Shown: positions 7,865 to 52,860 of the stretch, one piece after another
How positions within the stretch are numbered: the stretch's first letter is position 1
Layout: every line of letters starts with the position of its first letter
Assembly: GCA_013359335.1 (NCBI GenBank)
Contig: JABWBZ010000001.1
Span: 1-53,701 of the forward strand
DNA: 53,701 nucleotides
Direction: 5' to 3'
DNA from: a bacterium
GTDB taxonomy: Bacteria > CLD3 > SB21
The notes under the pieces: generated by a model
The model's input: the letters and a program-made list of their open reading frames with translations, nothing else
What the model was told of the DNA's origin: nothing
Databases searched by the model: none
Translations under genes and position numbers: made by a program

Positions 7865-8440
7865 CTACGGTTGTTGAATTTTTTTCAACAAGTCGTTGAG
7901 AATTTGTCCGGTCACGCCCCAGATGGTATGTTCTCCAAAATCGTAGTAATGGATTTCATAAATGCGGCTTTGATACATCCGATAACCGGTGCGATGATGA
8001 GATTCGAGCAGTAAATGCCGAAGCGGAACTTCAATTAATTCAGCCGTTTCGTGCGGATTAATTTTAAATGAATAGGGATATGGAATGACGCCGACAAAAG
8101 GAGTAACACGAAAACGAGTCGGTGTAAACATATCGTCCAATTCAGCGAGAATTTCCACGCGCGATTGGTCTAGGCCAATTTCTTCTTCCGTTTCCCGCAA
8201 AGCGGTATGGCGCAAATCAGGATCGGTTAATTCGTATGCGCCTCCCGGAAATGAAATCTGGCCTTTGTGATGTCGTACCGTTTGAGTGCGTTTAGCGAAA
8301 AGCAAAAACGGCTCGCCATTTTTTTCATAAAAAGGAATCAGCACGGCTGCGGGTATGAAAGAACCTAATTCTAACGCGAGTTTATGTTGAATGGATTGAA
8401 CGCGGGATTTATAAATTTCAAATGATGAGTCGGCCGGCAT
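7865..8440 (-). CDS. NUDIX hydrolase, CoA pyrophosphatase type (NudL/NUDT7-like)
   Basis: The Nudix box is GQISFPGGAYELTDPDLRHTALRETEEEIGL, preceded by LLFAKRTQTV. I place the start at the internal Met (MPADSS, 8440) because the longer ORF (to 8491) would overlap the upstream gene by 49 nt. Confidence 0.75.
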   Translation of the reverse strand: MPADSSFEIYKSRVQSIQHKLALELGSFIPAAVLIPFYEKNGEPFLLFAKRTQTVRHHKGQISFPGGAYELTDPDLRHTALRETEEEIGLDQSRVEILAELDDMFTPTRFRVTPFVGVIPYPYSFKINPHETAELIEVPLRHLLLESHHRTGYRMYQSRIYEIHYYDFGEHTIWGVTGQILNDLLKKIQQP

Positions 8441-8442
8441 AT

Positions 8443-10419
8443 TTATTTTTCTAACAATTCGATGATCCGTAAAATTTCTGCAACGCTCCAAGCTTGTGCG
8501 ATACAGCCTTTGGGAAAATGCGGCGGATCGCCGTCGTAAATTTCAGAAATCGTTCCGATGCCGGCGTCGTTCAGTTGAGTTGCAAAAGGTTCGATCAGCG
8601 TGCGGGCAAATGTTTTGGCTGCTTCACCGTCGTGCGTTTTCAAATAAGCTTCGATAAAAGCGCCAAGCAGCCACGGCCACACCGTTCCTTGGTGATACGC
8701 CGCATCGCGGTGGTAAGGATCGCCGGCGTAGACGCCGGTATACGACGGATGCGACGGCGACAAAGTCCGCAATCCGTAAGGCGTGAGCAGTTCGTTTTGA
8801 ATTTTTTCGATTATCAATTTACACCGATCCGTGTCGAGAAGCGAAAAAGGAAGGCTTACGGCGAAAATTTGATTGGGGCGCACGTCGCCGTTTTTTTCTT
8901 CGCCGTTGATATAATCGTATAAATAATTCCCTTCGGAAAACCAAAATTGTTCGTTAAAACTATTTTTCGTTTTTTCTGCCATCGTTTTGTATTTCTCGGC
9001 GTCATCCGTTTGTTGTAACGCGCGGCTCAATTCATGCATGATACACAATGCGTTGTACCAAAGCGCGTTGATTTCGACGCATTTGCCCGTACGCGGCGTG
9101 ACAACCCAATCGCCGATTTTAGCGTCCATCCAGGTAAGTTGTACTCCGCTTTCGCCCGCGTAAAGCAAACCGTCGTCCTCCATTTTAATATTGTAGCGGG
9201 TGCCATGAACGTGCCACGCGATAATATCCGCGAGGCGTTCGTATAAAACCGTGCGAATCAGTCCGTCATCATTCGTCGCCTGCCAGTAACGGTATGCGGC
9301 GACAAAAAACCACAACGTTCCATCGACGTTATTGTATTCCGGCGTTTCGTCAAGATCGGGAAATCGATTGGGGATCATGCCTTGAGAAATATATTCGGCA
9401 AAGGACAAAAGAATCGCTTTAGCAACGTCGTACCGTTTACAAGTCAGGGTCAATCCCGGTAAGGCGATCATCGTATCGCGGCCCCAATCGCCGAACCAAT
9501 GATAACCGGCGATGATCGTGTGGCGGTTGCCGGAACGTTTTACCAAAAATGAATCCGCCGACAACGCCAGCGATTGCGCCGCCGGATGCCGCAACGGAAA
9601 ATGTTCCGTATACGCTTTACGCCGCTGAATTTCATAATTCATCAATTGCCCGATGTCTTTGGATTTCAGAGAACTCGCACGATTGGTTTCACAGGTAATC
9701 AGAATATCAAGCGATTCACCGCCGTGCAATGTCGCCGATATAATTGCGTGGCTGAAAAGATCTTCGGTAAAATCCAGACCGCGTTCGTGTTCTTTTCTGT
9801 ATTCGGTATTTTTGTACCAGAAAAATTTTGGTTCAACCGAACCTAAATTATAATGAAAAGACAGGCGCGGCAAACCGGGATAAGGCTGGATCGAAAACTG
9901 ATACGCGCCGGCGTCGGTGTTTTTGTTAATATTCGTGTTCTCTTTGGATAAACTGTGATAATCGCGGAAAGAACATAATGGCCGGAGCGATAACGTCACA
10001 GGCTGATCCGCCTTGATGAGGCGATAGCGCAGAATCGTCGAATTCTCACCTTCGATCATCAGGATATTTTTTTCGATAACAATATCATGGACTCGGTAGA
10101 TTATTTTCGGGTAAAGGTCATATTCAAAACAGTCGATATTTTTGTGGCCTTCCGGAAAAATAATAAACGGATATTGGTTCGTCGACAGTTCGTACGTTTT
10201 GCCGTTGAAATTCAGGCTTTCTTCCATTTTAGAGAGGAGCACAAACCGGTGCGTTGGCGGACGGAGCGACGCGACGAGCAGGCCGTGATAACGCCGCGTA
10301 TTGGCTCCGATCACGGTGGAGGAGGCAAATCCGCCGATGCCGTTGGTTTCAAGCCATTCCTTTTGAGTGGCGTAATAATAATCGGCGCAGGTTTCTTTCG
10401 GGATTTTGAGCGGTTCCAT
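8443..10419 (-). CDS. Glycogen debranching enzyme, amylo-alpha-1,6-glucosidase (archaeal-type GDE)
   Basis: 658-aa ORF with a GDE_N-like N-terminus (WLETNGIGGFASSTV..NTRRYHGLL). The C-terminal (alpha/alpha)6 motifs are WFGDWGRDT and AYHQGTVWPWLLGAF. Confidence 0.8.
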   Translation of the reverse strand: MEPLKIPKETCADYYYATQKEWLETNGIGGFASSTVIGANTRRYHGLLVASLRPPTHRFVLLSKMEESLNFNGKTYELSTNQYPFIIFPEGHKNIDCFEYDLYPKIIYRVHDIVIEKNILMIEGENSTILRYRLIKADQPVTLSLRPLCSFRDYHSLSKENTNINKNTDAGAYQFSIQPYPGLPRLSFHYNLGSVEPKFFWYKNTEYRKEHERGLDFTEDLFSHAIISATLHGGESLDILITCETNRASSLKSKDIGQLMNYEIQRRKAYTEHFPLRHPAAQSLALSADSFLVKRSGNRHTIIAGYHWFGDWGRDTMIALPGLTLTCKRYDVAKAILLSFAEYISQGMIPNRFPDLDETPEYNNVDGTLWFFVAAYRYWQATNDDGLIRTVLYERLADIIAWHVHGTRYNIKMEDDGLLYAGESGVQLTWMDAKIGDWVVTPRTGKCVEINALWYNALCIMHELSRALQQTDDAEKYKTMAEKTKNSFNEQFWFSEGNYLYDYINGEEKNGDVRPNQIFAVSLPFSLLDTDRCKLIIEKIQNELLTPYGLRTLSPSHPSYTGVYAGDPYHRDAAYHQGTVWPWLLGAFIEAYLKTHDGEAAKTFARTLIEPFATQLNDAGIGTISEIYDGDPPHFPKGCIAQAWSVAEILRIIELLEK

Positions 10420-10495
10420 GCAGTTCTTGTCTCACGTTGTCGCCCTGAATTCGTTTCAGGGTATGTTTGTTTCTATAGAATGATGTTATAACAAA

Positions 10496-10514
10496 CCCCG
10501 AAACAAGTTCGGGG
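10496..10514 (-). terminator. Hairpin downstream of hutI, a weak intrinsic terminator candidate
   Basis: CCCCGAA-acaag-TTCGGGG, followed on the minus strand by TTTGTT. It lies 19 nt after the hutI stop. Confidence 0.4.
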
Positions 10515-10532
10515 TGACGTGTGCCTGAGAGA

Positions 10533-11750
10533 TCAAAAAACCATTCGTCCGTTTTTAATAACGTGCTCGACGTGATTCTGTCCGAAATGATACGGTATAT
10601 ATTTATAATTGGGCACACTAAATAAAACCAAATCGGCTTTGCAGCCGGGTTGAATATTGCCGATGTCAGTGCGATCCAGCGATTTGGCCGCATTGAGCGT
10701 GACGCCCTGGATAACTTCTGCGGGCGACATTTTCATCTGCGTGCATGCAATGGACATAATGAGCTGCAAATGTTGTGTCATGGACGAACCGGGATTAAAG
10801 TCTGTCGCAAGCGCAACCGGAATTCCTGCTTCGATCAGTTTCCGTGCCGGCGGGTATTGCATGTTCAGAAAAAACGAACAGCCCGGCAAAAGCCCCGCCA
10901 CTGTTTTGGAATTTTTTAAAGCGTCGATGCCGCGATCGGAAATATGTTCAAGATGATCGGCGGAAACGGCGCCCATCTCCGCGCACAATTCCGCGCCGCC
11001 GGTATGAGTCAGTTGATCCGCATGAAGCTTCAGTTTCAATCCGTATTGTTCGGCCGCCTCGAAAATCCGCCGGGTCTCGTCGATGGTAAATACATTCGCC
11101 TCGCAAAACGCATCGCAGAATTCGGCTAATTTTTTTTCAGCGACGGCCGGAATCATTTCGTCACAAACAAGTTTGACGTAATCGTCGCGCTTGGGCTTGT
11201 ATTCCGGCGGAACGCTGTGCGCCCCTAAAAAAGTTGCATGAATGTCCATTGGCGTGTGCTCGCGCAGATCGCGAATGACCTCGAGAATTTTGATTTCATC
11301 CGCCAGCGACAAACCGTAACCGCTTTTGATTTCAATCGTCGTGATACCGAAACGCAACGCTTGTACGAGCCTTTTCTTTCCGAGTTGAAGCAGTTCTTCT
11401 TTGGAAGTTTTGCGGGTAGCGCTCATGGTATTTAAAATGCCGCCGCCTTTTTGGGCAATTTCGGCGTACGTCGCGCCGCGTAATTTCATCTCGAATTCAT
11501 CCTCGCGCGAACCGGCAAAAATTGTGTGCGTATGGGAATCGATCAATCCCGGTAAAACGACGAAGTCCGACGCGTCAATGACCGTGGCCGATTCCAGGCC
11601 GAGCTGTTTCTCATCGCCGACGTGAATAATTTTTGAACCGGCGCACGCGACCGAGACGTTTTCGAAAGTTTTAAATTGTCCCTGATCGAACGTGACGACC
11701 TGGCGCGCATTCCGAATGAGTAAATCCGTTTTCATGGAGAACCGTTCCAT
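10533..11750 (-). CDS. hutI: Imidazolonepropionase
   Basis: 405-aa amidohydrolase with LPGLIDSHTHTIFAGSR, YAEIAQKGGGI, KLHADQL and ATDFNPGSS, matching HutI family motifs. The alternative start MKTDLL lies 15 nt downstream. Confidence 0.85.
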   Translation of the reverse strand: MERFSMKTDLLIRNARQVVTFDQGQFKTFENVSVACAGSKIIHVGDEKQLGLESATVIDASDFVVLPGLIDSHTHTIFAGSREDEFEMKLRGATYAEIAQKGGGILNTMSATRKTSKEELLQLGKKRLVQALRFGITTIEIKSGYGLSLADEIKILEVIRDLREHTPMDIHATFLGAHSVPPEYKPKRDDYVKLVCDEMIPAVAEKKLAEFCDAFCEANVFTIDETRRIFEAAEQYGLKLKLHADQLTHTGGAELCAEMGAVSADHLEHISDRGIDALKNSKTVAGLLPGCSFFLNMQYPPARKLIEAGIPVALATDFNPGSSMTQHLQLIMSIACTQMKMSPAEVIQGVTLNAAKSLDRTDIGNIQPGCKADLVLFSVPNYKYIPYHFGQNHVEHVIKNGRMVF

Positions 11751-11811
11751 TAGGTTGGCTGCGCAAATTACACAAAAAGCTCAATCGGCGCAATGAAGAT
11801 TTTGGGGTTCA

Positions 11812-11837
11812 TAGCTCCGCGTTTAAACGCGGAGCTA
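11812..11837. repeat. Perfect 26-nt palindrome in the divergent hutI / lipoprotein intergenic region
   Basis: TAGCTCCGCG-TTTAAA-CGCGGAGCTA has 10-bp arms and a central TTTAAA that is itself palindromic. Neither flanking gene ends here, so it is not a simple terminator. Confidence 0.9.
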
Positions 11838-39557: not shown

Positions 39558-41012
39558 ATGACATGGTTGTCGATCAGGAATAGAATGTCGATTCTATTCC
39601 TTTTTTTTGGCTTCTTGCAGCCGGTAATAGCCCAACCGATTTCGTATTCTTCGGTTAAACTCGATTCGTTGAAAAAAAAATTAGACGTAATTTTTTCTCA
39701 AAAACTTTTCAAAGAATCTTCAGTCGGATTTTATGCGAAGTCGTTAAAATCAGGGCAGGCTTTATATCAACGCAATGAAACAAAGTTATTGAGTACGGCT
39801 TCGTGTATGAAGTTGGTGACGACGGCGGCGGCCCTGGACAAGTGGGAAACTAATCGCCAGTTTAAAACTTCCTTTTATACTGACGGGAAATTAGAAAAAG
39901 GAATTTTAAAAGGAAATTTATATGTCAAAGGTTTTGGCGATCCGTATTTAGTAACCGAAAAACTTTTGAAATTCATCTGTCATCTCAAAGCCGCCGGTTG
40001 GACCTCCATCACGGGTGACATTGTTGCTGACGACAGCTATCTGAGCGACACACCCAATGCCGAAATCAATGATCGTGCCTATTCGGCCGTCGGCGGCGCG
40101 CTGGGATTTAATTTCAACACCGTTACGGTGTTTGTTCGTCCCGGCGAAAGGCCGGGCGATTCCGCGCAGGTTTTTATCGAGCCGATTTCGAATTGGGTTA
40201 CCATTATCAATAACGCCAAAACCGGCGACTCTAATTCCACAACCATCGACAACTATAAAGTGTCCGCACAGTTCAATAAGCATTCGATAGTACTGACGGT
40301 ATACGGCGTTATCGGAATTGATGAAAAAGAATTGGAAATATACAAACGTGTGGATGACCCGACGCGATATACAGCGACGGTCATTCTGGAAACATTGAAG
40401 CAATTTGGAATTTCCGTTCAAGGTACTGTAAGAAATGGCCGAGTGCCTGTTGATGCCGAATCGTTATATGATTTATCTTCTTACGATTTGTCGTATATCA
40501 TTTCCGGAGTTAATAAGTGGAGCAATAATTATGTTGCCGGCCAACTCCTGATGATCATGGGCGCGGAGGAATTTGGCGCACCGGGAACGGATGAAAAAGG
40601 GCTTCGTGCAATCAAACCATTTCTAACAAAGGTCGGCATCCACGATCATGAAATGACGATGGTCGACGGCTCTGGCCTGGATGCGCGCAATAAAATGTCG
40701 GCGTCGGCATTGGTGCGATTGCTCGAGTACATGTCCGGTTCACGCTGGTCTTCCGAATACCTGTCTTCTTTAAGTATTGCCGGCGTGGACGGAACTGAAA
40801 GAAAACGATTCAAAAAAAACGGCGGCCCGGCCGGCGCCGGCCGATTGAAAATCGGTTATTTGTGGGGCGTGAGTACGCTGAGCGGGTACATTGAAACTAA
40901 AAACGGCGATCAAATTGCTTTCGCCATTTTGACTAATGATTTTCCAAAAGAATACTATGAAAGTATCAAGCAATTGGAAGATCAGATCTGCACGGCTTTG
41001 TATGAACTATGA
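39558..41012 (+). CDS. dacB: D-alanyl-D-alanine carboxypeptidase/endopeptidase (PBP4, peptidase S13)
   Basis: 484-aa ORF with a signal peptide, the SxxK motif (ASCMK) and the S13-like motifs GFGDPYL and DGSGL. The C-terminal KIGYL lies at the KTG position. Confidence 0.8.
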   Translation: MTWLSIRNRMSILFLFFGFLQPVIAQPISYSSVKLDSLKKKLDVIFSQKLFKESSVGFYAKSLKSGQALYQRNETKLLSTASCMKLVTTAAALDKWETNRQFKTSFYTDGKLEKGILKGNLYVKGFGDPYLVTEKLLKFICHLKAAGWTSITGDIVADDSYLSDTPNAEINDRAYSAVGGALGFNFNTVTVFVRPGERPGDSAQVFIEPISNWVTIINNAKTGDSNSTTIDNYKVSAQFNKHSIVLTVYGVIGIDEKELEIYKRVDDPTRYTATVILETLKQFGISVQGTVRNGRVPVDAESLYDLSSYDLSYIISGVNKWSNNYVAGQLLMIMGAEEFGAPGTDEKGLRAIKPFLTKVGIHDHEMTMVDGSGLDARNKMSASALVRLLEYMSGSRWSSEYLSSLSIAGVDGTERKRFKKNGGPAGAGRLKIGYLWGVSTLSGYIETKNGDQIAFAILTNDFPKEYYESIKQLEDQICTALYEL

Positions 41013-41389
41013 GTGATAATTATTCAAAAAAAATCGGCGATCGCGGAGAAGAAGTTGCGGTCAAATATTTGGAATCCAAGCAATACGAAATTCTGGCCAA
41101 AAAATATAAATTCAGAAACGGTGAATTGGATATTGTGGCGAAGAATAATGGTGTGCTTGTTTTTGCAGAAGTGAAAACGGCCGATTTGACTTATCAATCC
41201 ATTTCCAAATACGGCGAGCCTGAATCATGGCTTACGCCGAAAAAGCAAAAGTTTATGCGTCAATGTGCTAACCATTATCTCTGGAAGAACGGAATTTCAA
41301 ACGTTGATTGCCGTTTTGATTTGATTGCCGTCCGCCTTTATTCCGACCGCGAAGATATCAACCACATAGAAAATGCGTTTTGGATGTGA
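41009..41389 (+). CDS. YraN-family (UPF0102) endonuclease-like protein
   Basis: 126-aa ORF with GDRGEEVAVKYLESKQYEILAKKYKFRNGELDIVA...VFAEVK. Confidence 0.85.
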   Translation: MSDNYSKKIGDRGEEVAVKYLESKQYEILAKKYKFRNGELDIVAKNNGVLVFAEVKTADLTYQSISKYGEPESWLTPKKQKFMRQCANHYLWKNGISNVDCRFDLIAVRLYSDREDINHIENAFWM

Positions 41390-41390
41390 C

Positions 41391-42656
41391 TCACGGCTTC
41401 AGCGCGCCATTTAATACGACGCTCAATTCATTGAGGGGGCAATTTTTTTGCTCGCCTGATTTCATGTCTTTGATTGCGCATTGATTTTGCGCGACTTCAT
41501 TTTCCCCGATAATAACCACGTATCGTGCATTTTGGCGATTAGCATCGCGCATCTGCGCTTTCAGGCTGCGATCGTTTTGTCCGATCTCGCATGCAAAAGC
41601 TAACTGACGGAGTTGGCGCGCGAGGGGGAGAACGGCCTTCAGCGCTGTTTCTCCTAAAACCACAAAATATACATCGGGCTTCGGCGCTTCGCCAAAAGAA
41701 AGTTTTTCGGCTTCCATCACAATGATAAGGCGTTCGATGCCTGCCGCAAATCCCACTGCCGGCGTAGGTTTGCCGCCAAGGCTTTCGGCGAGAAGATCGT
41801 ATCGCCCGCCGCCGCCCAGCGCATTTTGCGAACCCAAATTTTCACTTTGGATTTCATAAGCGGTTTTCGTGTAATAATCCAGTCCGCGCACCAGTCGTCC
41901 GTCAATTTCGAAAGCAATGTTCATACTTTGCAGCATGGCTTGAACTTTATCAAAGTGCGCCGAGCATTCTTTGCACAGATATGAATTCATCAACGGCGCG
42001 TTGGCGGTTAATTGAAAGTCTTTTTCGTTTTTCGAATCAAGAATTCGCATCGGATTGGTCAGAAGACGTTTCTGGCTTTCGGCAGAGAGATCATTTTTGA
42101 CGTTTTCCAAAAAAGTCACCAGCGCTTCGCGGTAACGCGGACGACAAGTGTGACAGCCCACGCTGTTGATTTTGAAATTCAGATTTTTAATTCCCAATTC
42201 TTCATAGATCGACAACGCGACGGCCATCGTTTCCACGTCGTTTTCGGGAGCCTGGCTGCCGATGCATTCCACGCCAAATTGATGGAATTGCCGCAAGCGG
42301 CCTTTTTGTGGGCGTTCCTGGCGGAACATCGGGCCGATGTAATAAACTTTATTCAACGATTGCAATTCGCCGAGGCTGTTTTCAATAAACGCGCGCATGA
42401 CTGATGCCGTCATCTCCGGCCGCAAGGTCAGGCTTTCGTTGCCTTTGTCCAAGAACGTGTACATTTCTTTGCCAACCACGTCGGTGCTTTCGCCGATGCT
42501 GCGCGAAAATAATTCAGTGTATTCGAACATCGGCGTTCGGATTTCTGCGTAGTTAAACCGGCGCATAACGTCGCGGATTTTATTTTCAACAAAATGCCAT
42601 TTGTAAATTTCAGAAGGAAGAATATCCTTGGTTCCGGTAGGAATTCGGTAATTCAA
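41391..42656 (-). CDS. hisS: Histidine--tRNA ligase
   Basis: 421-aa ORF with GTKDILP, class II motifs (MFRQERPQKGRLRQFHQ, GGGRYD) and a C-terminal anticodon-binding domain. Confidence 0.93.
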   Translation of the reverse strand: MNYRIPTGTKDILPSEIYKWHFVENKIRDVMRRFNYAEIRTPMFEYTELFSRSIGESTDVVGKEMYTFLDKGNESLTLRPEMTASVMRAFIENSLGELQSLNKVYYIGPMFRQERPQKGRLRQFHQFGVECIGSQAPENDVETMAVALSIYEELGIKNLNFKINSVGCHTCRPRYREALVTFLENVKNDLSAESQKRLLTNPMRILDSKNEKDFQLTANAPLMNSYLCKECSAHFDKVQAMLQSMNIAFEIDGRLVRGLDYYTKTAYEIQSENLGSQNALGGGGRYDLLAESLGGKPTPAVGFAAGIERLIIVMEAEKLSFGEAPKPDVYFVVLGETALKAVLPLARQLRQLAFACEIGQNDRSLKAQMRDANRQNARYVVIIGENEVAQNQCAIKDMKSGEQKNCPLNELSVVLNGALKP

Positions 42657-42668
42657 ATGTCAGCTCCT

Positions 42669-44387
42669 TTAATTAAGCGCATTTCGGATGGCGTCGGAAA
42701 ATTTTTGTAAGTTTTCGGTCGGTTCGACGGCGTTTTCACTTTGAGCCAATTGTTCTTTGGCGCTGTTGTCAATTTCTTTGATGCTGAAAAAAACCTGTTC
42801 GTGGGCGGTTTTCTGTTGTTCAATCGCGCGCGTGATGTGTTCGATGGATTCAAAAGTTTGTTTTACCATTTCATAAATGTGATTGAAAGCTTCTTGCGCG
42901 TCGGCGGCGGATTGCTTTCCGTGTTGCACCAGTTTGAGTTCTTTTTCCGTTGCCAAAACGGAAATATGCGTGGCTTTGCGCACATCGGTAATGATTTTTT
43001 TGATTTCTTCAGTTGAATTGGAGATGTTCTGCGCCAGTTGACGGATTTCGGTGGCCACGACGCCGAAACGTTCGCCCAATTCGCCTGCCGCCGCCGTCTC
43101 AATGGCTGCGTTGAACGCCAAAATTTTAGTATGATCGGTGATGTAGTTAATGATCTTCATGACTTCTTCGATTTGCGACATGCGAAGGCTCAAATCCATC
43201 GCTCGCTGCGATCCTAATGTCGCTTCGCTGTGAATCTGTTCGATGCTGTTTAACGTTTTGTCGATGAAATCTTTTCCTTTGGTGACTTGCGCAAATCCGT
43301 TTTGCAAAACTTTATTGACACGCAAAATATCTTCGGAAATTTGATTAACGGAGTGTACCAATTCCTCCAACGTCGTTGTGATTTGTGCGATCGCCGACGC
43401 CTGATTGGAAGAAGCAACGTGCTGATACTTCGACGTGTTCGAAATTTCCTTTGATTCTTGGCCGATGGCCACACTCCATTCGCGTAATTGTCCGGTCAGA
43501 TTTTCCAACTGCCGGTGATAATGCTGAAAATGGCCGCTCAGTGCGGCGATCTCATCGGTCGTAACACGAAAAACTTTCGGTGCGCGTTCATTCGATAAAT
43601 AAGATTGCATCAGCCTGACAGGGCGCAACGTCGAGCGGCTGAACAACCTGACTGTCACCAGAGCGTACAAAGCCGTACCCGCTAAAAGCCAGTATACATC
43701 GGATTGAGCGGCCATACCCGATTCACGCTGCCGCGACATCATCGTGATGAGTAGCGTGCACACGGATATCAAAGGAATGAATACGACAGCCGATAATTTC
43801 ATCCGGAAACTGATCGGAACAACGGACAAAGGCTCGGCGGGCGCTTGAGAAATCTGAGCCGCGAGCGACATCATCAGATTTTCCAAAACAAAAAATTGCA
43901 ATAACGCCAGCGGCCAAACGAAAATGCTCACCGCAACTAATGCGTTCGCCAGATAATCATACCAGAGTATCGAATCAATGATAAAAGGAATCGTAACCGT
44001 CAGGGCTGTAAATAATACCGTACCGTAAATCGTTGCGATCAGGCCGTACGCGCAAAATTTGACCGGATAATTGACAATCTCAGTGGCGATTTCCTGTAAT
44101 ACAGCCGGCGTTGCAACCGACGTCGCGATATCGTCATTCGAAAAGAAAAATAGCGACGTTTTTTTTAGTAAAAGCGTGTGCGTTAAAGCGCCGATAGCCA
44201 GGATAATCCCGACGTCGACCCACAATACCAACTGGCGGTAAAAATTTTCTTCCGGTGTCATGACCATGTTGCTTTGAATGTACACGCTCGCTATCAAAGA
44301 AAAAATTATTCCCATGGCCATGGTATAGAAATAGGGCTTCCATACAATCCAAAATGAGAACGGACGTAACATCGGCTGTTGGCTCAT
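42669..44387 (-). CDS. Methyl-accepting chemotaxis protein with a 6-TM membrane-embedded N-terminal module
   Basis: 572-aa ORF. Six hydrophobic helices with short loops occupy residues 1 to about 260. A HAMP-like segment follows. The conserved signalling tip is AFNAAIETAAAGELGERFGVVATEIRQLA. Confidence 0.9.
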   Translation of the reverse strand: MSQQPMLRPFSFWIVWKPYFYTMAMGIIFSLIASVYIQSNMVMTPEENFYRQLVLWVDVGIILAIGALTHTLLLKKTSLFFFSNDDIATSVATPAVLQEIATEIVNYPVKFCAYGLIATIYGTVLFTALTVTIPFIIDSILWYDYLANALVAVSIFVWPLALLQFFVLENLMMSLAAQISQAPAEPLSVVPISFRMKLSAVVFIPLISVCTLLITMMSRQRESGMAAQSDVYWLLAGTALYALVTVRLFSRSTLRPVRLMQSYLSNERAPKVFRVTTDEIAALSGHFQHYHRQLENLTGQLREWSVAIGQESKEISNTSKYQHVASSNQASAIAQITTTLEELVHSVNQISEDILRVNKVLQNGFAQVTKGKDFIDKTLNSIEQIHSEATLGSQRAMDLSLRMSQIEEVMKIINYITDHTKILAFNAAIETAAAGELGERFGVVATEIRQLAQNISNSTEEIKKIITDVRKATHISVLATEKELKLVQHGKQSAADAQEAFNHIYEMVKQTFESIEHITRAIEQQKTAHEQVFFSIKEIDNSAKEQLAQSENAVEPTENLQKFSDAIRNALN

Positions 44388-44392
44388 AAAGT

Positions 44393-47299
44393 TTATCCGA
44401 TCAGGCTTTCCACCGTGTCAATAAGATTGGTTTGATCGAACGATCCTTTGACAATGTAGGCATTGGCGCCCACGTCGATGCCGCGGCGTTTGTCGTCGGA
44501 CGAATCGCGCGACGTGACGATGATGACCGGTATGTGTTGATAGTTTTTATCGTTTTTAATTTTTGACGTCAGGGTAAATCCATCCATCAAAGGCATTTCC
44601 AGATCGGTCACAATCAGATCGAAATGTTTTTGCCGTATTTTTTCAAAAGCATCGAGACCGTCTTTCGCCGTGTCGACTTCATAACCGTAAGCCTGTAAAA
44701 TGGTTTTTTCAACTTCGCGCGTATTAAGCGAGTCGTCAACGACAAGAATCGATTGCGCCGATTTCTTGGGCATTTTGGGTTTTTCACGAATTGAAAAATC
44801 TTTCGTCGAAGCGATCAGGTCGGGAACGTGCAGGACGAGAACGATTTCATTATTGGTGGCAATGGTGGCGGATGAAATATTCTGAACGCGCATAAAATGA
44901 TCGGGAAGCGATTTGACGATAATGTCGCGTTCGTCGATAATGTCGTCGACGATAAAACCGGCCCGCTCGCCGCTGGCGTGTGCGATAATCACGAAGGCTT
45001 CTTCCTGCTTTATTCCGCCGTCGTTTGGAACGTTCAGGATATCCGTTAAAACCAAAATGGGGATCAACTGGTTGCGCACGCGGATCGCATTTTTCTCAAT
45101 GACTTCGATAATATCGCTGCGTTTGATTTTGATCGTTTCAGTTATCGACGACAAAGGAAAAGCCAATTTATGTTTTCCGGCCTGAACAAAAAGCGCCCGC
45201 AACGACGTCAGGGTCAATGGCAAATGAATGCTGAATTTGGATCCGACGTTTTTTTTCGTTTCGACGGTGATGTAGCCTTTCAGCGACTCGATGCATTGTT
45301 TGACAATATCCATTCCGTAGCCGCGTCCGGAAATATCGGTAATAAAATCGCTGGTGCTGAATCCCGGCATGAAAATGAAATTGATCAAATCGTTTTCCGA
45401 AAACCGGCTGATGTCGTCTTTACCGGAAATTAAATTTTTCTTAACCGCTTTTTCTTTGATTTTTTCAATGTCGATGCCGCGTCCGTCGTCCTGCACTTCG
45501 ATCAGGATCGTATTGCCTTCATTGTAAGCGGCAATCGAAAGCGAGCCTTCGGCGGGTTTGCCTGATCGTGCGCGTTCTTCCGGCGTCTCAATGCCGTGGT
45601 CGATCGCGTTACGGATCAGGTGAATGAGCGGCTCATTCAGTTTTTCCACCATTTTCCGGTCCAGTTCCGTTTCCCTTCCGGTAAGATTGAACTGCAATTT
45701 CTTGCCGAGATTTTTGGCAAGATCGCGCACGGCGCGCGGATACGCGTCGAAAATGGTACTCAGCGGAACCATGCGCATGCCCATGACATTTTGCTGAACT
45801 TCATTGACCAGCGTTTCGAGCGTAGCGGCATTTTCACGGCCGTCCTTCCACAAAGCTTCCATTTGAGCCAACGCAAGGATGCCTTCCTCGATGATCTCAT
45901 GACTCCATGCCGTAAACGAGGAATGTTCCAATGAAAAATTTTCGTTACGGTAGGCAGGGACATAGCCGGTTTCTATTTTCTTGATAAAATGTTTTAAAGT
46001 AATGTACGCCTGCCGCAGATTTTTCAAATGATCGGTATTGCGCATTTGCGAAGTAATCAGTTCGCCGGTCGCGCGGATCAAGGCATCGAGTTTATCAATT
46101 CGGATGCGGATCGTTTGGTCGACGTCCGCACGGCGGTCTTCTTTGGGCGAAGCCGGCAAATCCACTTCCGTTGTCGTAATCTGCGCGTGGCCGAGCAATT
46201 CGCGTGACGTTTTTTGTTCTTTGAGCATCAGGTGCAATTGCTCGCGCGTGAGATATCCGAGGGCGATCAAACGCTCGCCGAGAGGCACGGACGTGTCGGT
46301 AGTTTGATTCGCGTGAATCAATTGTTCGCGCGACAAAAGGCCGGCCTGAACCAAACGTTCTCCCAAGCGATCGGCCACGCCGGAATCGTCCGTTTCGCCC
46401 GACGTCAAAACAACCGGTTTGGTTTCTTTACTGGCAAATATTTTGATTAACGTCTCGGAGTCCATTTTTGCATTACGCGCGACGCCGTCCAGTGCGTCCA
46501 GTACGGCCGTATTGGCAAAATGATCGCTGCCGGTGGAACGAACCTGATCCGACAAGCCCGATAACAGTTGGAGCGCTTCTTCCACGGCTGTTTTGACTAA
46601 CGGCGTGAGAGTGATTTTTTTATTTTGAAACGCCGCGAGAATATTTTCGACCCGCAGCGCGATGGCGCTCAAAGTTTCAAATTTGAGCATGCGCGCCGAA
46701 CCTTTGAGCGTATGAGCAGCGCGCAAAGCGGCTTGCAGCGATTCGGTATGCGCGGAGTTTTTCTTAAGGCTTTCAAATTCATCGCGGATGGATTGCACGT
46801 GTTCTTGGGCTTCGTCCGCGAACTTGGTTACGAACGAAGCTTTGTCGATAGCTGATTTTACCGGTTCTTTCGGAATGTCGGATTTCGCTGGCGTTTTCGC
46901 TGATTCAACGGGCTGATTTTGTGCAAGCGCAATAAGTTTTTGCTGAATGTCGGAAATATCTGCCGCCGCTTCTTGATCGTTCAATACATCGTCGACCAGC
47001 GCGTTGAGTCGGTCGAATGTTTGAAGAAAAATATCGATAACCGCGCCTGAAAATTCCTGTTTCCGTTTGCTCATCGCGTAAGCCGCGTCTTCAAAATCAT
47101 GCGCCAACGTGCTGATCGTCTGGAAGTTCAGCATTTTGGCGGAGCCTTTGATCGTATGAATGGTGCGCATCATGGTGTCCAACGCCTCATGATTCGACGG
47201 AGTTTTTTCAAGACGGAGAACGGAATCGTTGAGCCGCTGGAGATTGTCGCGCGTCTCGAGAACGAATTTTTGAATGAAAGTTGAGCGGTCGAATTTCAT
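44393..47299 (-). CDS. cheA: Hybrid chemosensory histidine kinase CheA (Hpt-Hpt-linker-dimerisation-HATPase-CheW-REC)
   Basis: 968-aa ORF with two Hpt boxes (RTIHTIKGSAKML and RAAHTLKGSARML). The kinase boxes are HLIRNAIDHGIE, DDGRGID and GRGYGMD. A CheW-like domain is followed by a C-terminal REC (ILVVDDS...LIVTDLEMP...IVKG). Confidence 0.93.
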   Translation of the reverse strand: MKFDRSTFIQKFVLETRDNLQRLNDSVLRLEKTPSNHEALDTMMRTIHTIKGSAKMLNFQTISTLAHDFEDAAYAMSKRKQEFSGAVIDIFLQTFDRLNALVDDVLNDQEAAADISDIQQKLIALAQNQPVESAKTPAKSDIPKEPVKSAIDKASFVTKFADEAQEHVQSIRDEFESLKKNSAHTESLQAALRAAHTLKGSARMLKFETLSAIALRVENILAAFQNKKITLTPLVKTAVEEALQLLSGLSDQVRSTGSDHFANTAVLDALDGVARNAKMDSETLIKIFASKETKPVVLTSGETDDSGVADRLGERLVQAGLLSREQLIHANQTTDTSVPLGERLIALGYLTREQLHLMLKEQKTSRELLGHAQITTTEVDLPASPKEDRRADVDQTIRIRIDKLDALIRATGELITSQMRNTDHLKNLRQAYITLKHFIKKIETGYVPAYRNENFSLEHSSFTAWSHEIIEEGILALAQMEALWKDGRENAATLETLVNEVQQNVMGMRMVPLSTIFDAYPRAVRDLAKNLGKKLQFNLTGRETELDRKMVEKLNEPLIHLIRNAIDHGIETPEERARSGKPAEGSLSIAAYNEGNTILIEVQDDGRGIDIEKIKEKAVKKNLISGKDDISRFSENDLINFIFMPGFSTSDFITDISGRGYGMDIVKQCIESLKGYITVETKKNVGSKFSIHLPLTLTSLRALFVQAGKHKLAFPLSSITETIKIKRSDIIEVIEKNAIRVRNQLIPILVLTDILNVPNDGGIKQEEAFVIIAHASGERAGFIVDDIIDERDIIVKSLPDHFMRVQNISSATIATNNEIVLVLHVPDLIASTKDFSIREKPKMPKKSAQSILVVDDSLNTREVEKTILQAYGYEVDTAKDGLDAFEKIRQKHFDLIVTDLEMPLMDGFTLTSKIKNDKNYQHIPVIIVTSRDSSDDKRRGIDVGANAYIVKGSFDQTNLIDTVESLIG
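46214..46369 (-). other. MshEN/T2SSE_N-like tandem motif within CheA (residues 311-362)
   Basis: RLGERLVQAGLLSREQLIHANQTT-DTSV-PLGERLIALGYLTREQLHLMLKEQ. Compare the published MshEN c-di-GMP-binding motif RLGxx(L/V/I)(L/V/I)xxG(L/V/I)(L/V/I/F)xxxxLxxxLxxQ, which is present twice in tandem. Confidence 0.5.
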
Positions 47300-47302
47300 A
47301 CG

Positions 47303-48736
47303 CTATTTCAAATATTGTTTGCAGGCATTGATAATATATTCGGACGAATACGCGAGCGCAATGAATGACAGCGACGCATCCGCTCGGTTTTCCAGAATGC
47401 GTACGGCGTTACGGTATTCGCGGCGGGCGTCGTCTTTGTAACCGGTGTTCCACAACACGGACGCCAAATGAAAATGCGCGAGCGAAAAATCGTTTTTCAA
47501 AAAAATGGTTTTTCTGAAATGTTCTTCCGCGCGAACCGGTTCGTGCCGGTATAGGTGAATCAATCCGAGCAAAAAATAACTTTCGGCCTCCACAGGATCC
47601 ACCGCGATCATTTGCCGGCACACGTCGACAGCGTTGACGAACAATTCTTTGCCGATTAGAATATGCGTTTTTAAAACCAAAAACGGAATCGATTGTCCGT
47701 TGTGCCGCAGATTATCTTCCACATGCGACAAGGCTTCGTCGTAATTGCCGTTTTTGAACATTTTAAATATTTGTTCAAATTGAACCGGCTTGACTTCGGT
47801 CCGTAATTCAGGCGCAGGTGTATTGGATTTACGCGCCGGTTGTTTGACAAGCGTTTCGATGGTTTTTGTCTGAATCGGCTGCGTATCGGTGACCGGCGTC
47901 GATGGCTTCAATTGATATAAAAAAACGCCGTCTTTTTCAACCAATTTCAGGTGGCCGAAATTATGATGAAGCGTTTCGGATGAACTTACGAACAGAAAAC
48001 CATTTTCCGTCAGCGTATGCGCCAGCCGTTTATTGATCTCGCGGATTTTATTTTTTGAAAAATAAATCGAAACATTTCTGAAAAAAATAATATCAAAGTC
48101 ACGGATTAATTCGCCGTAATCTTCCTGGAAAAGGTTGACGTATTCGAACAACACCATTTTGCGGATCCGTTCATCGATGACGCGATACGTTTTGTCGGCG
48201 GCAGGGTTTTTGAAATAGGAATTGAGATAATACACGTCGACGGAACGAAAAGCGTTTTTGTTATAATGGCCTTTCCGGCCGTGGCTGAGCGCGGCGCGAT
48301 CGATATCAGTGGCAATAACCTGCGCTTCGAAATCGCCGTAAATCAATCGGGCTTCATGCAGCGTGATGGCGATTGAATAGGCTTCCTCGCCGGACGAACA
48401 GCCGGCGCTCCAGACTTTGATTTTTTTTTCGCGTTTCTGTTTCAGAATTTCCGGAATCAGATGCATTTTCAAAATCCGGAAGTGCGACGGTTCTCGGAAA
48501 AAATACGTTTCATTATTGGTAATAAGTTCGACCAATTTTCGCAATTCGTCATCCGTACGCGATCCGAGCAGACTGTAGTAGCGGGCGTAATTGTTATCTA
48601 AACCAAGTTGGAGCATGCGCTCACGTACTTTTTGAGTAAACTCGTTGTACGCGTCGTCGGCAAGATAAATTCCGCAAAAGTCGTGAATAGTTTTGCGGAA
48701 AGCATCGTACATGGTTTTATCGAAGTCTGCGATCAT
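47303..48736 (-). CDS. cheR: Chemotaxis protein methyltransferase CheR with C-terminal TPR repeats
   Basis: 477-aa ORF with the CheR N-domain and a SAM fold (VWSAGCSSGEEAYS, DIIFFRNVSIYF). A linker of about 40 aa is followed by about 3 TPR-like repeats. Confidence 0.9.
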   Translation of the reverse strand: MIADFDKTMYDAFRKTIHDFCGIYLADDAYNEFTQKVRERMLQLGLDNNYARYYSLLGSRTDDELRKLVELITNNETYFFREPSHFRILKMHLIPEILKQKREKKIKVWSAGCSSGEEAYSIAITLHEARLIYGDFEAQVIATDIDRAALSHGRKGHYNKNAFRSVDVYYLNSYFKNPAADKTYRVIDERIRKMVLFEYVNLFQEDYGELIRDFDIIFFRNVSIYFSKNKIREINKRLAHTLTENGFLFVSSSETLHHNFGHLKLVEKDGVFLYQLKPSTPVTDTQPIQTKTIETLVKQPARKSNTPAPELRTEVKPVQFEQIFKMFKNGNYDEALSHVEDNLRHNGQSIPFLVLKTHILIGKELFVNAVDVCRQMIAVDPVEAESYFLLGLIHLYRHEPVRAEEHFRKTIFLKNDFSLAHFHLASVLWNTGYKDDARREYRNAVRILENRADASLSFIALAYSSEYIINACKQYLK

Positions 48737-48738
48737 AG

Positions 48739-49776
48739 TTATTCGTTAAAAAAGATTTCATCGACGCCGGCGTGGCGCACAATTTCATCGGCAATACGGT
48801 CCAGCGGCAGCACCCATTCGGCGGCATCGAGATCGATGGCCGCTTTGGGCATGCCAAAAATTAATGAAGTGGCTTCGTTTTGCGCGATCGTTTTGCCGCC
48901 GGCGTTGCGGATTTCTTTCAGCCCGTCGGCGCCATCACGGCCCATACCGGTTAAAATGACGCCGATGGAATTGGCGCCCGCGCATCGCGCCATCGATTCA
49001 AACAAAATATTGCCGGAAGGTTTCTGTCCGTTCGACGGCTCGGTGTCGCTCAGATCAATCGTAAACTCACGTGTGATGGCCAGATGCTTTCCGGAATCGG
49101 CGACATAGACGGCGCCTTTTTCGACGGGTTCATCCGCTTCGGCAATTTTGACTTTCAGCGGCGATACGTCCTGCAGCCATTCCACCAAACCGAACGTAAA
49201 GCCTTCCGAAATGTGCTGGACGACCAGAATCGGCGCGGAAAGATTTTTGGGCAGCCGGCCGAATATCGTCGCCAGCGCGCGCGGACCGCCGGTGGAACAA
49301 ACGATGCCGATGATTTTTTGCAAAACCGGTTTGCGGCCCGGCGTTTTTTTTCTCGGCGTCCGTCCCGAAATGTGCGTGACCACTTTGACGCGGGCGATCA
49401 ATTTAATCTTGCGCGTGAATTCTTCGTATTTTTTTGACGTATAACTTTCTTCGAGTTCCGGCTTTTCCAAAACCTCGAGCGCGCCGACGGAAAGGGATTG
49501 AAAAGCGATGTTGGCGTCGGTGCTGGACGTGATGACGAGAATAGGAGTCGGGCGATAAGCCATGATATGCCGGATTGCATCCAGTCCATTCATCACCGGC
49601 ATATTGATATCGAGCGTGATCACGTCAGGGCGCAACGTCTCCGCCATCTGAATGACTTCGCGGCCGTTGCGCGCTTTGCCGACAACTTCGATGTCCGGAT
49701 CGGAGCACAAAATCGTGTCGATAATATCCAGCGCCGTCGGGGAATCGTCGGCGATTAATACACGAACTTTGCCCAT
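48739..49776 (-). CDS. cheB: Protein-glutamate methylesterase CheB (REC + esterase)
   Basis: 345-aa ORF with a REC domain (VLIADDS...ITLDINMP). The esterase motifs are GIVCSTGGPRAL, VVQHIS and GMGRDGA. Confidence 0.92.
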   Translation of the reverse strand: MGKVRVLIADDSPTALDIIDTILCSDPDIEVVGKARNGREVIQMAETLRPDVITLDINMPVMNGLDAIRHIMAYRPTPILVITSSTDANIAFQSLSVGALEVLEKPELEESYTSKKYEEFTRKIKLIARVKVVTHISGRTPRKKTPGRKPVLQKIIGIVCSTGGPRALATIFGRLPKNLSAPILVVQHISEGFTFGLVEWLQDVSPLKVKIAEADEPVEKGAVYVADSGKHLAITREFTIDLSDTEPSNGQKPSGNILFESMARCAGANSIGVILTGMGRDGADGLKEIRNAGGKTIAQNEATSLIFGMPKAAIDLDAAEWVLPLDRIADEIVRHAGVDEIFFNE

Positions 49777-49798
49777 GGCTGAATCTTTTCAGTGAATA

Positions 49799-51580
<1,782 letters not shown>

Positions 51581-51582
51581 GA

Positions 51583-51849
51583 TTATTCTTCGTTGAATTT
51601 ACTTTCGAATAAGGCGATTAGCGCATTCATCGCTTCCTCTTCGTCGGAACCTTCGATTTTGATTTTGACCGCGCTGCCCATAGCCGCCGCCAGCATCATG
51701 ACGCTCATAATACTTTTGGCGTTGACTTCCGTGCCATCGCAGGAGAAAAAAACGTCGGAGTCAAATTTACTGGCCGTTTTGACCAATAGCGCGGCCGGCC
51801 GTGCATGAATGCCGGCTTTATTGGAAACAATAATTTCTCGTTCGATCAT
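51583..51849 (-). CDS. ptsH: Phosphocarrier protein HPr
   Basis: 88-aa ORF. His15 lies in GIHARPA and Ser46 in NAKSIMSVM, so both phosphorylation sites are conserved. Confidence 0.9.
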   Translation of the reverse strand: MIEREIIVSNKAGIHARPAALLVKTASKFDSDVFFSCDGTEVNAKSIMSVMMLAAAMGSAVKIKIEGSDEEEAMNALIALFESKFNEE

Positions 51850-51867: not shown

Positions 51868-52860
51868 TCAATACGACCGGTGCCAAGCCTGATGCGTGAT
51901 TTCCAGCAGGCGGTTTTTGGCCGGCGTATTCTTAAATCCGTTTAAGTTTTTCAATGCCGATTTAAAATGGCTGTCGATTCGTCGTTGCGTTTGCTTCCGG
52001 ATTCCGCTGCTGTCCAAGAAATCGATAAATTCCGTCAACAATTGCCGGTGCCGCGTTTCAGGATGCTCAGGACTGAAAGTATCGAGTAACCCGCGGCCTT
52101 GTTCGCTTCTCGATGCAAGGATCGATAGGTATGTTTTTTTCTTTTCGATCAAATCACTGCCGATGTTTTTCCCGAAAGTATTTTCATCGGAAATAATATC
52201 GAGCAGATCGTCCTGAATCTGAAAAGCCAATCCGAAATGAAGACCGAAATCGCGAAGCGCTTTTTCCTGCTTAGGTGAAACGCCGCCAATGATACCGCCG
52301 ATCCGGGTGGCCGCGCCGAATAAAACGGCGGTCTTTTGACGTATCATATTCATATAATCTTTTTCGCTCACGGTTGTCTGGGTTTCGAATTCTTTATCAA
52401 GCGCCTGACCCTCACATAATTCGATGAACCCGTCCGCAAAAATATTCGAAACATAAGGCAACACATCCTTGGGACACTGGCTCAAGGCTTTGTAAGCCGC
52501 CGCGGCGAGAAAATCGCCCGATAAAATAGCGATATTCGGATTCCATTTTTTGTGAATCGTTTCCCGACCCCGCCGCATATCATCGTTATCCATGATATCG
52601 TCGTGGATCAGCGAAAAATTATGTAGAATCTCCACGGCCGCCGCCGCGTGAAGAGCATGACGATAATTCCGTCCGTTTAAAGTGCTGCACAAAACCAGCA
52701 TCACGGCGCGCAACCTTTTGCCACCGCCTTGAAATAAATACTGAGGCGGTTCATATAGCGTGATGGGCTTTTTTTTTCGAATATATGAAGCGCAAGTCTT
52801 CCGCCAAGAGAATAACCCACCAAGATTTTCTTTTTTGCAAATGTGTTTAAAGAAATCCAA
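51868..52860 (-). CDS. Short-chain polyprenyl (geranylgeranyl/farnesyl) diphosphate synthase; the N-terminus is apparently truncated or chimeric
   Basis: The motifs are LYEPPQYLFQGGGKRLR, FARM LIHDDIMDNDD and SARM FQIQDDLLD. Family-like sequence begins only at about 52768. The 32 codons upstream, from a TTG start at 52860, are an out-of-frame reading of the menH fragment. Confidence 0.7.
   Translation of the reverse strand: MDFFKHICKKENLGGLFSWRKTCASYIRKKKPITLYEPPQYLFQGGGKRLRAVMLVLCSTLNGRNYRHALHAAAAVEILHNFSLIHDDIMDNDDMRRGRETIHKKWNPNIAILSGDFLAAAAYKALSQCPKDVLPYVSNIFADGFIELCEGQALDKEFETQTTVSEKDYMNMIRQKTAVLFGAATRIGGIIGGVSPKQEKALRDFGLHFGLAFQIQDDLLDIISDENTFGKNIGSDLIEKKKTYLSILASRSEQGRGLLDTFSPEHPETRHRQLLTEFIDFLDSSGIRKQTQRRIDSHFKSALKNLNGFKNTPAKNRLLEITHQAWHRSY

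Follow-up and report, generated by a model that had tools for sequence, protein, structure and literature searches.

A split Wsp-like chemosensory system, predicted from sequence, with one half lodged between ispB-ptsHI and hisS, probably by inherited gene order

Introduction

When genes for the general proteins of the phosphotransferase system (PTS) and for a chemosensory module follow each other almost without gaps, does their order reflect a dedicated signalling link or the history of the locus? This question is raised by a stretch of 53,701 nt (contig JABWBZ010000001.1, positions 1 to 53,701, GenBank assembly GCA_013359335.1, GTDB lineage Bacteria; CLD3; SB21), hereafter the window, in which ptsH, ptsI, cheB, cheR, cheA, a gene for a methyl-accepting chemotaxis protein (MCP) and hisS form one run on the minus strand. 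The original prediction, made from the sequence alone, described this run as a minimal CheW-less chemosensory module that is hard-wired at the operon level to a regulatory PTS. The comparative analysis reported here points to another reading, in which the che genes of the window supply the enzymatic half of a Wsp-like system that is split, its scaffold half lying on a different contig, and in which the neighborhood with the PTS genes is probably an inherited gene order and not a dedicated signalling link. The analysis covered the genome of the window itself (G000; 408 contigs, 92% complete) and its relatives in the genome collection (18 genomes of the order, 20 of the phylum), for which ptsI and che loci were fetched and the window proteins were mapped onto them.

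Gene content of the run

The gene identities were obtained by a Pfam profile search of the proteins of the run, and the open reading frames (ORFs) and gaps were recomputed from the window. The following features make up the run:

51868..52860, minus strand, ispB-like polyprenyl diphosphate synthase, first gene of the run (polyprenyl_synt, E = 3.6e-71)
51583..51849, minus strand, ptsH, HPr of 88 aa (PTS-HPr, E = 6.5e-32)
49799..51580, minus strand, ptsI, Enzyme I (EI) of 593 aa (PEP-utilisers_N, PEP-utilizers, PEP-utilizers_C)
48739..49776, minus strand, cheB, receiver domain and methylesterase (REC, CheB_methylest)
47303..48736, minus strand, cheR with C-terminal TPR repeats (CheR, E = 6e-52; TPR_2, TPR_1, TPR_12)
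44393..47299, minus strand, cheA, hybrid kinase (two Hpt, H-kinase_dim, HATPase_c, CheW-like P5, REC)
46214..46369, minus strand, MshEN-like motif pair within CheA, residues 311-362 (phmmer against PDB sequences)
42669..44387, minus strand, MCP with multiple transmembrane (TM) helices (MCPsignal only)
41391..42656, minus strand, hisS (HisRS)

The gaps between consecutive genes from ispB to hisS are 18, 2, 22, 2, 3, 5, and 12 nt. The last six of these distances are exactly those of the original prediction, and Pfam confirms every gene that it had named. The ispB-like gene, located 18 nt upstream of ptsH, is an additional member of the run that the prediction omitted. The scan of the window found no terminator-like site or hairpin in any intergenic gap of the run, as had been predicted, and with no terminator detected co-transcription appears plausible. 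The other sequence-level parts of the prediction, namely an HPr with both His15 and Ser46, a regulatory PTS, and a Wsp-like character of the Che proteins, were borne out as well, as described below.

Wsp-like character of the Che block

Fusions of CheR with TPR repeats mark pathways of the alternative cellular function type (ACF; PMC3447774), and the Che block of the window encodes such a fusion together with a two-Hpt CheA-REC. The assignment of this block to the Wsp-like ACF systems is supported by its domain architecture and by the gene clusters that surround its closest homologues. The CheA protein consists of two Hpt domains, an MshEN-like insert, the dimerisation domain, HATPase, the CheW-like P5 domain, and a C-terminal REC domain (Response_reg, residues 851-963, E = 1.4e-26), and two families share this full-length architecture, with 48-57% identity. 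All ORFs of the block are intact, and the HxxKG motif in both Hpt domains, the Ser/His/Asp triad of CheB, and the S-adenosylmethionine (SAM) motif of CheR are legible in the translations. The MCP of the window has about 5-6 N-terminal TM helices and no periplasmic domain according to a hydropathy scan, and no HAMP domain was detected in it by Pfam.

The closest full-length homologues of this CheA outside the phylum show 35-38% identity. One of them belongs to an unsplit cluster with the gene order CheW-CheW-MCP(HAMP)-CheB-CheR_TPR-CheA_REC-REC_GGDEF (locus L066), and another to the cluster MCP-CheB-CheR_TPR-CheA_REC-REC_cyclase with CheW-CheW close by (locus L064). A REC-GGDEF or REC-cyclase gene directly after CheA is thus a shared trait of these relatives. 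A search of the genome contig collection with the window CheA returned only REC-domain matches in unrelated taxa.

The prototype of ACF systems is Wsp of Pseudomonas, which consists of the MCP WspA, the CheW-like proteins WspB and WspD, the CheR-TPR protein WspC, the CheA-REC kinase WspE, the CheB protein WspF, and the REC-GGDEF output protein WspR. Like Wsp, the system described here has CheR-TPR, CheA with a C-terminal REC, and CheB, to which the second locus adds a pair of CheW-type proteins and an MCP with two TM helices, a periplasmic domain, and HAMP. In contrast to Wsp, it is split over two loci with the break between MCP and cheB, it includes two extra MCPs (one with about 5-6 TM helices and one with a TM hairpin), its CheA carries two Hpt domains and an MshEN-like insert, and no WspR-type output gene is found at either locus.

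The second locus

The second locus was found on contig C356 of G000 (8049-11825) and includes four genes:

C356, CheW, 171 aa
C356, CheW-like ORF, 129 aa
C356, MCP with a TM hairpin, 392 aa
C356, WspA-like MCP-HAMP, 567 aa, with two TM helices, a periplasmic domain of ~185 aa, and HAMP

Orthologues of the window CheA are present in 12 of the 18 genomes of the order. The CheW protein of C356 has orthologues (40-94% identity) in exactly these 12 genomes and in none of the six others, and the same distribution was observed for the MCP-HAMP protein (56-97% identity). Across the order, the latter is 56-71% identical and hence far better conserved than the MCP of the window (32-40%). The second locus is syntenic in all 10 relatives with the window-type CheA (Che-positive genomes) for which it was fetched. 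In the three of the six Che-negative genomes that were checked (G005, G009, and G012), the flanking genes for a 163-aa lipoprotein and a HAD protein are direct neighbors, and nothing of the CheW-MCP block lies between them. The absence was established by protein searches, as a DNA-level search for the locus in Che-negative genomes gave no match and was uninformative.

Homology to the unsplit clusters leads to the same pairing: the CheW and MCP proteins of the Wsp-like clusters outside the phylum have their best G000 matches on contig C356. Given this co-occurrence and homology, the window block can be interpreted as one half (cheB-cheR-cheA) of a Wsp-like system that was split, of which the C356 locus is, by homology, the predicted missing half. 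The "CheW-less" description therefore stands for the run itself and fails for the system, whose CheW locus co-occurs perfectly with this CheA in the 18 genomes, and the module is not a minimal one, since co-occurrence, synteny, and homology supply a CheW, a CheW-like protein, and two MCPs on C356.

In total, nine MCP genes and three CheW genes that stand alone were found in G000, along with additional CheA genes. A census of CheW domains found in Che-negative genomes a single cluster with two CheW genes and one CheA gene, of the type present on contigs C368 and C385 of G000 and universal in the order. Six Che-positive genomes contain a cluster of this type plus exactly one lone CheA of the window type and one lone CheW of the C356 type. 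Contigs C368 and C385 look like two pieces of one large order-universal chemosensory cluster (MCP, CheW, CheR, CheW, MCP, CheA-REC, CheB, and REC-GAF-HisKA-HATPase), and the six genomes without the window-type system have no other Che system.

The C356 genes are flanked by cca-like and lipoprotein genes on one side and by a HAD gene on the other. The spacing at this locus ranges from a 6-nt gap to a 23-nt overlap, and such distances also separate the unrelated genes (cca-like, lipoprotein, and HAD).

History of the ptsI-che junction

The fetched loci fall into the following states:

State A, ispB-ptsH-ptsI-cheB-cheR-cheA-mcp-hisS: G000, G001, G015, G017
State A, partial, ptsI-cheB-cheA without cheR on a 2.8-kb contig: G002
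State A', as state A minus cheB: G007, G010
State B, ispB-ptsH-ptsI-hisS with che genes absent: G005, G009, G011, G012, G013
State C, ispB-ptsHI apart from (cheB)-cheR-cheA-mcp-hisS: G003, G004, G006, G008

In addition, G014 also lacks CheA, the block cheR-cheA-mcp-hisS stands at a contig start in G016, and three extra metagenomic contigs show state A (two contigs, one of them without cheR) or state C (one contig). The adjacency of ptsI and che genes is thus observed in seven genomes and two extra contigs, and the che block is detached in four genomes and one contig. Where it is detached, the gene after ptsI is an unrelated one (hldE-like, GAF-GGDEF, or tryptophan dioxygenase), and upstream of the che block lies either a divergent gene or a spacer of promoter size (91-216 nt), so that the block can form a transcription unit of its own. 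The GAF-GAF-GGDEF protein encoded directly after ptsI in G004 (L025, 9797-11548), with the che block moved away, was seen in this one genome only.

The order of the che genes and hisS is unbroken in all 11 Che-positive relatives and contigs with an assembled junction (it is not assembled in G002); G003 has a 1.3-kb insert at this junction. Thus, two pairs are invariant, ispB-ptsHI in the phylum sample and che-hisS in every Che-positive genome assembled there, and the ptsI-che junction is the one that breaks. The Che-negative genomes retain ispB-ptsHI in all six cases, with hisS directly after ptsI in the five for which the locus was fetched. The sister order has a convergent gene after ispB-ptsH-ptsI, and neither che nor hisS there.

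These states were placed on a tree of PtsI, HisS, and IspB rooted on the second family. Both the outgroup and the basal lineage of the window's family show state A, so the ptsI-che adjacency is ancestral in the order. At least two independent detachments (G003 with G008; G004 with G006) and at least two independent complete losses of Che (G005; genus g9) are required, the six Che-negative genomes corresponding to two losses. The synteny in relatives that the original prediction called for was consequently found in part: the adjacency is ancestral, but the junction has been broken and the che genes have been lost repeatedly.

The tree also implies at least two losses of cheB. Orthologues of CheB occur in only part of the Che-positive genomes, being missing in genus g7 (L029, L031), in G003 (L045), and in L067, and cheR is missing in G002 (L032) and on the extra contig L068, with cheA staying in place. 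The adaptation enzymes CheB and CheR thus seem dispensable in some lineages, and CheA, MCP, and hisS stay where they are.

PTS genes and their partners

The HPr of the window contains both His15 (GIHARPA) and Ser46 (NAKSIM), as read from the translation. PtsI orthologues are 61-69% identical across the order. Two further PTS-related genes were identified elsewhere in G000: hprK on contig C193, next to uvrA (Hpr_kinase_C, E = 2.4e-65), and an ORF for a PtsN-type (EIIA-Ntr-type) EIIA_2 protein on contig C162, cut by the contig end and neighbored by folate and nucleoside-kinase genes (PTS_EIIA_2, E = 5e-23). No match to PTS_EIIC, EIIA-man, or EII-Sor was found in the 92%-complete genome, in a search that covered part of the EIIB/C families. 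Taken together, this PTS looks to be of the regulatory, transport-less type.

Regulatory or incomplete PTSs with HprK/P and EIIA-Ntr are described for alpha-proteobacteria and spirochaetes. The PTS of G000 resembles them in having EI, an HPr with His15 and Ser46, HprK, and an EIIA_2-type protein, and in that no EIIB/C was found among the families searched. It differs from them in three respects: its EI lacks the N-terminal GAF domain of EI-Ntr, neither hprK nor the EIIA gene lies beside rpoN, and ptsHI form a unit with a polyprenyl synthase gene across the phylum sample. The order ispB-ptsH-ptsI was observed at every fetched ptsI locus of relatives with enough upstream contig, including those of the sister order (L062, 7818-10845; L063, 8347-11426), where PtsI is only 34-36% identical. 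We know of no functional reason for tying an isoprenoid synthase to the PTS.

The MshEN-like insert and candidate outputs

The insert in CheA consists of tandem 24-residue motifs (residues 311-334 and 339-362) located between the second Hpt domain and the dimerisation domain. The second motif fully matches a relaxed consensus of the RLGxx(L/V/I)(L/V/I)xxG...LxxxLxxQ type, and positions 21 (Asn) and 24 (Thr) of the first one deviate from the strict consensus. In phmmer searches against PDB sequences, residues 302-372 match PilF (6f8l, E = 5e-7) and MshE (5htl, E = 2e-4); the Pfam family T2SSE_N was not detected in CheA even at E <= 1, the MshEN similarity being seen only against PDB sequences. 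The insert resembles the MshEN (T2SSE_N) domain of MshE and PilF in its tandem 24-residue pair, which aligns to motifs binding cyclic di-GMP (c-di-GMP), and differs from it in comprising only the motif pair of ~55 residues and in being an internal insert. The pair is conserved in all 11 aligned CheA orthologues. Of the 120 best CheA-REC homologues, the 18 orthologues from the order all have at least one motif, and the next 102 have none. Fusions of MshEN with CheA had been noted earlier (Wang et al. 2016, PMC5013675). A c-di-GMP input to CheA via this order-specific insert is thus plausible.

No response-regulator output gene was found at the window locus or at the C356 locus, and the prediction that the run has no output gene holds. 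A REC-GGDEF protein encoded on contig C301, 33% identical to the WspR-like gene product of L066, was considered as a dedicated output and rejected, since every one of the 18 genomes has an orthologue, whether or not it has the system. Candidate outputs are the REC domain of CheA itself and an unlinked regulator.

Profile searches of G000 gave no match to FliG_C, one modest match to Flagellin_N (C267), and three T2SSE (PilB/PilT-type) ATPases. With FliG_C not found and a weak Flagellin_N match, there is no evidence for a canonical flagellar Che cluster that owns this kinase. The organism may be non-flagellated, and all its Che systems may accordingly be non-flagellar.

Origin and meaning of the PTS-Che neighborhood

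The reading closest to the original prediction regards the regulatory PTS and the Che block as one functional operon, in which the phosphorylation state of EI and/or HPr, reflecting phosphoenolpyruvate (PEP)/pyruvate and carbon status, directly modulates this CheA and thereby conveys metabolic status to a chemosensory pathway unrelated to motility. It draws on the gaps of 2-22 nt without a terminator or a convincing promoter between ptsI and cheB, and on an ancestral adjacency that is kept in five of the nine Che-positive genera (g1, g2, g7, g10, and g11) and in two extra contigs, at 50-65% protein identity. Moreover, a PTS without a transport role must act on some target, and in E. coli unphosphorylated EI modulates CheA. 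Such PTS-to-CheA input is conceivable here as well, the EI and HPr genes physically adjoining cheA, whereas the corresponding genes of E. coli are unlinked. On the other hand, the E. coli coupling (EI and EIIA-Glc acting on the CheA-CheW-receptor complex) serves taxis to PTS-transported sugars, whereas no EII permease was found and no FliG was detected here, and the linkage itself is evolutionarily labile. The ptsI-che junction was broken in at least two independent lineages and the che-hisS junction never, six genomes lost Che entirely and nevertheless kept ispB-ptsHI, and the sister order has ispB-ptsHI without che. No PTS genes lie near CheA in the three examined clusters of its closest relatives outside the phylum, and in five outgroup genomes with PtsI and CheB homologues the two are encoded on different contigs. 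The same logic of spacing would also "link" ispB and hisS, and a literature search for a ptsHI-che operon found no paper describing one. We therefore consider a functional operon unlikely, and the hard-wired link of the original prediction is not upheld. A more elaborate version, in which a transport-less PTS is co-transcribed with and directly gates the kinase half, and CheA integrates PEP/carbon, c-di-GMP, and signals of three MCPs, with output via its own REC or an unlinked regulator and not via a WspR-type cyclase, appears quite improbable.

Coupling could also be confined to expression, with the che half and hisS being passengers of the ispB-ptsHI operon, so that the amount and not the activity of the Che proteins follows the regulation of that operon. 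From ispB through hisS there is no promoter-sized intergenic space; ispB is preceded by a 180-nt gap in the window and by a divergent region of 336-485 nt (mraZ and ispB) in relatives, and detached che blocks have acquired the intergenic regions of 91-216 nt mentioned above. Promoters within coding sequence are nevertheless possible. The scan gave 25 promoter-like matches (shuffle mean 15.8 +/- 4.2), only ~2 standard deviations above the mean, and the match nearest to cheB is a 9/12 sigma-70-like site within the 3' end of ptsI (49887-49859), although this consensus may not be that of the phylum. We regard coupling by expression only as a real possibility. A different view, in which the Che block is what remains of a Wsp-like cluster that is decaying after the loss of its output and is disappearing from the lineage, would account for the complete losses in at least two lineages, the loss of cheB in genus g7 and in the G003/L067 lineage, the absence of cheR from G002 and L068, and the lack of a dedicated response-regulator output at either locus. 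It is hard to reconcile with the intact ORFs and legible catalytic and phospho-acceptor motifs, with the conservation of the full-length CheA architecture and of the partner MCP-HAMP, and with an order-specific MshEN insert that was gained and is strongly conserved; we consider decay highly improbable.

The explanation that we favor, and consider probable, is that half of a split Wsp-like system lies between ispB-ptsHI and hisS through inherited gene order. The run would then comprise three unrelated units arranged head-to-tail on one strand of a compact genome: (i) ispB-ptsH-ptsI, conserved across the phylum sample and encoding the general proteins of a regulatory PTS with HprK and an EIIA-Ntr-type protein; (ii) cheB, cheR-TPR, cheA-REC, and the MCP gene, the enzymatic half of a Wsp-like system with its scaffold half on C356; and (iii) hisS. 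The che half would have been located between ptsI and hisS already in the ancestor of the order and is probably transcribed here by read-through from the ispB/pts promoter. The signalling array would consist of three MCPs, both CheW-type proteins, and CheA through its P5 domain. CheA is predicted to autophosphorylate on its Hpt domain(s) and to transfer the phosphate to its own REC, CheB, and a further response regulator; CheR-TPR and CheB would adapt the receptors, and the order-specific MshEN-like insert probably adds a c-di-GMP input to CheA. A positional link to the PTS is more likely than a functional one because the ptsI-che junction was broken repeatedly, Che was lost with the PTS retained, neither the sister order nor the relatives outside the phylum show the link, and plainly unrelated genes are equally tightly packed at both loci.

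Several observations weigh against this explanation. Approximately one-half (49%) of the 892 co-directional neighbor pairs in the genome have a gap of <=25 nt (median 27.5 nt, by a crude ORF call), but runs of at least eight tightly spaced genes are rare (6/751, by the same call), and the run of the window, with all gaps <=25 nt, is one of eight genes. The eight-gene block also outlasts its surroundings, persisting in family f2 and genus g7 with other genes on the far side of hisS. This stability and rarity suggest that some constraint holds the block together; it could be a shared promoter, but also a functional tie between the PTS and Che. The search for an output response regulator gave none, and the REC-GGDEF protein that came closest is present in all 18 genomes. 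The genome itself is incomplete (92%) and fragmented into 408 contigs. Finally, the pairing of the two loci is suggested by homology and by a co-occurrence that reflects only two independent losses.

Two further observations concern the run. A plus-strand gene (41009-41389), convergent with hisS, ends 1 nt from the hisS stop codon. A Shine-Dalgarno sequence is not recognisable for seven of the eight genes, only hisS having AAAGGAG, which suggests that translation initiation in the phylum is Shine-Dalgarno-poor.

Conclusions

Very tight spacing says little about a functional link when the genome is compact, as illustrated by a run that also "links" a polyprenyl synthase and hisS to the PTS and Che genes, and the apparent lack of CheW vanishes once the second locus, inherited together with the first, is taken into account. 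If the PTS does act on CheA, carbon status would have a new way into ACF signalling, although the comparative evidence argues against a dedicated link. By its gene content, the system is predicted to be of a known kind, a split Wsp-like system. It defines for this small, uncultured and poorly known phylum a two-locus Wsp-like system with a CheA that carries a conserved MshEN-like insert and without a recognisable output regulator, and it provides a tractable case for asking how ACF pathways get rewired.

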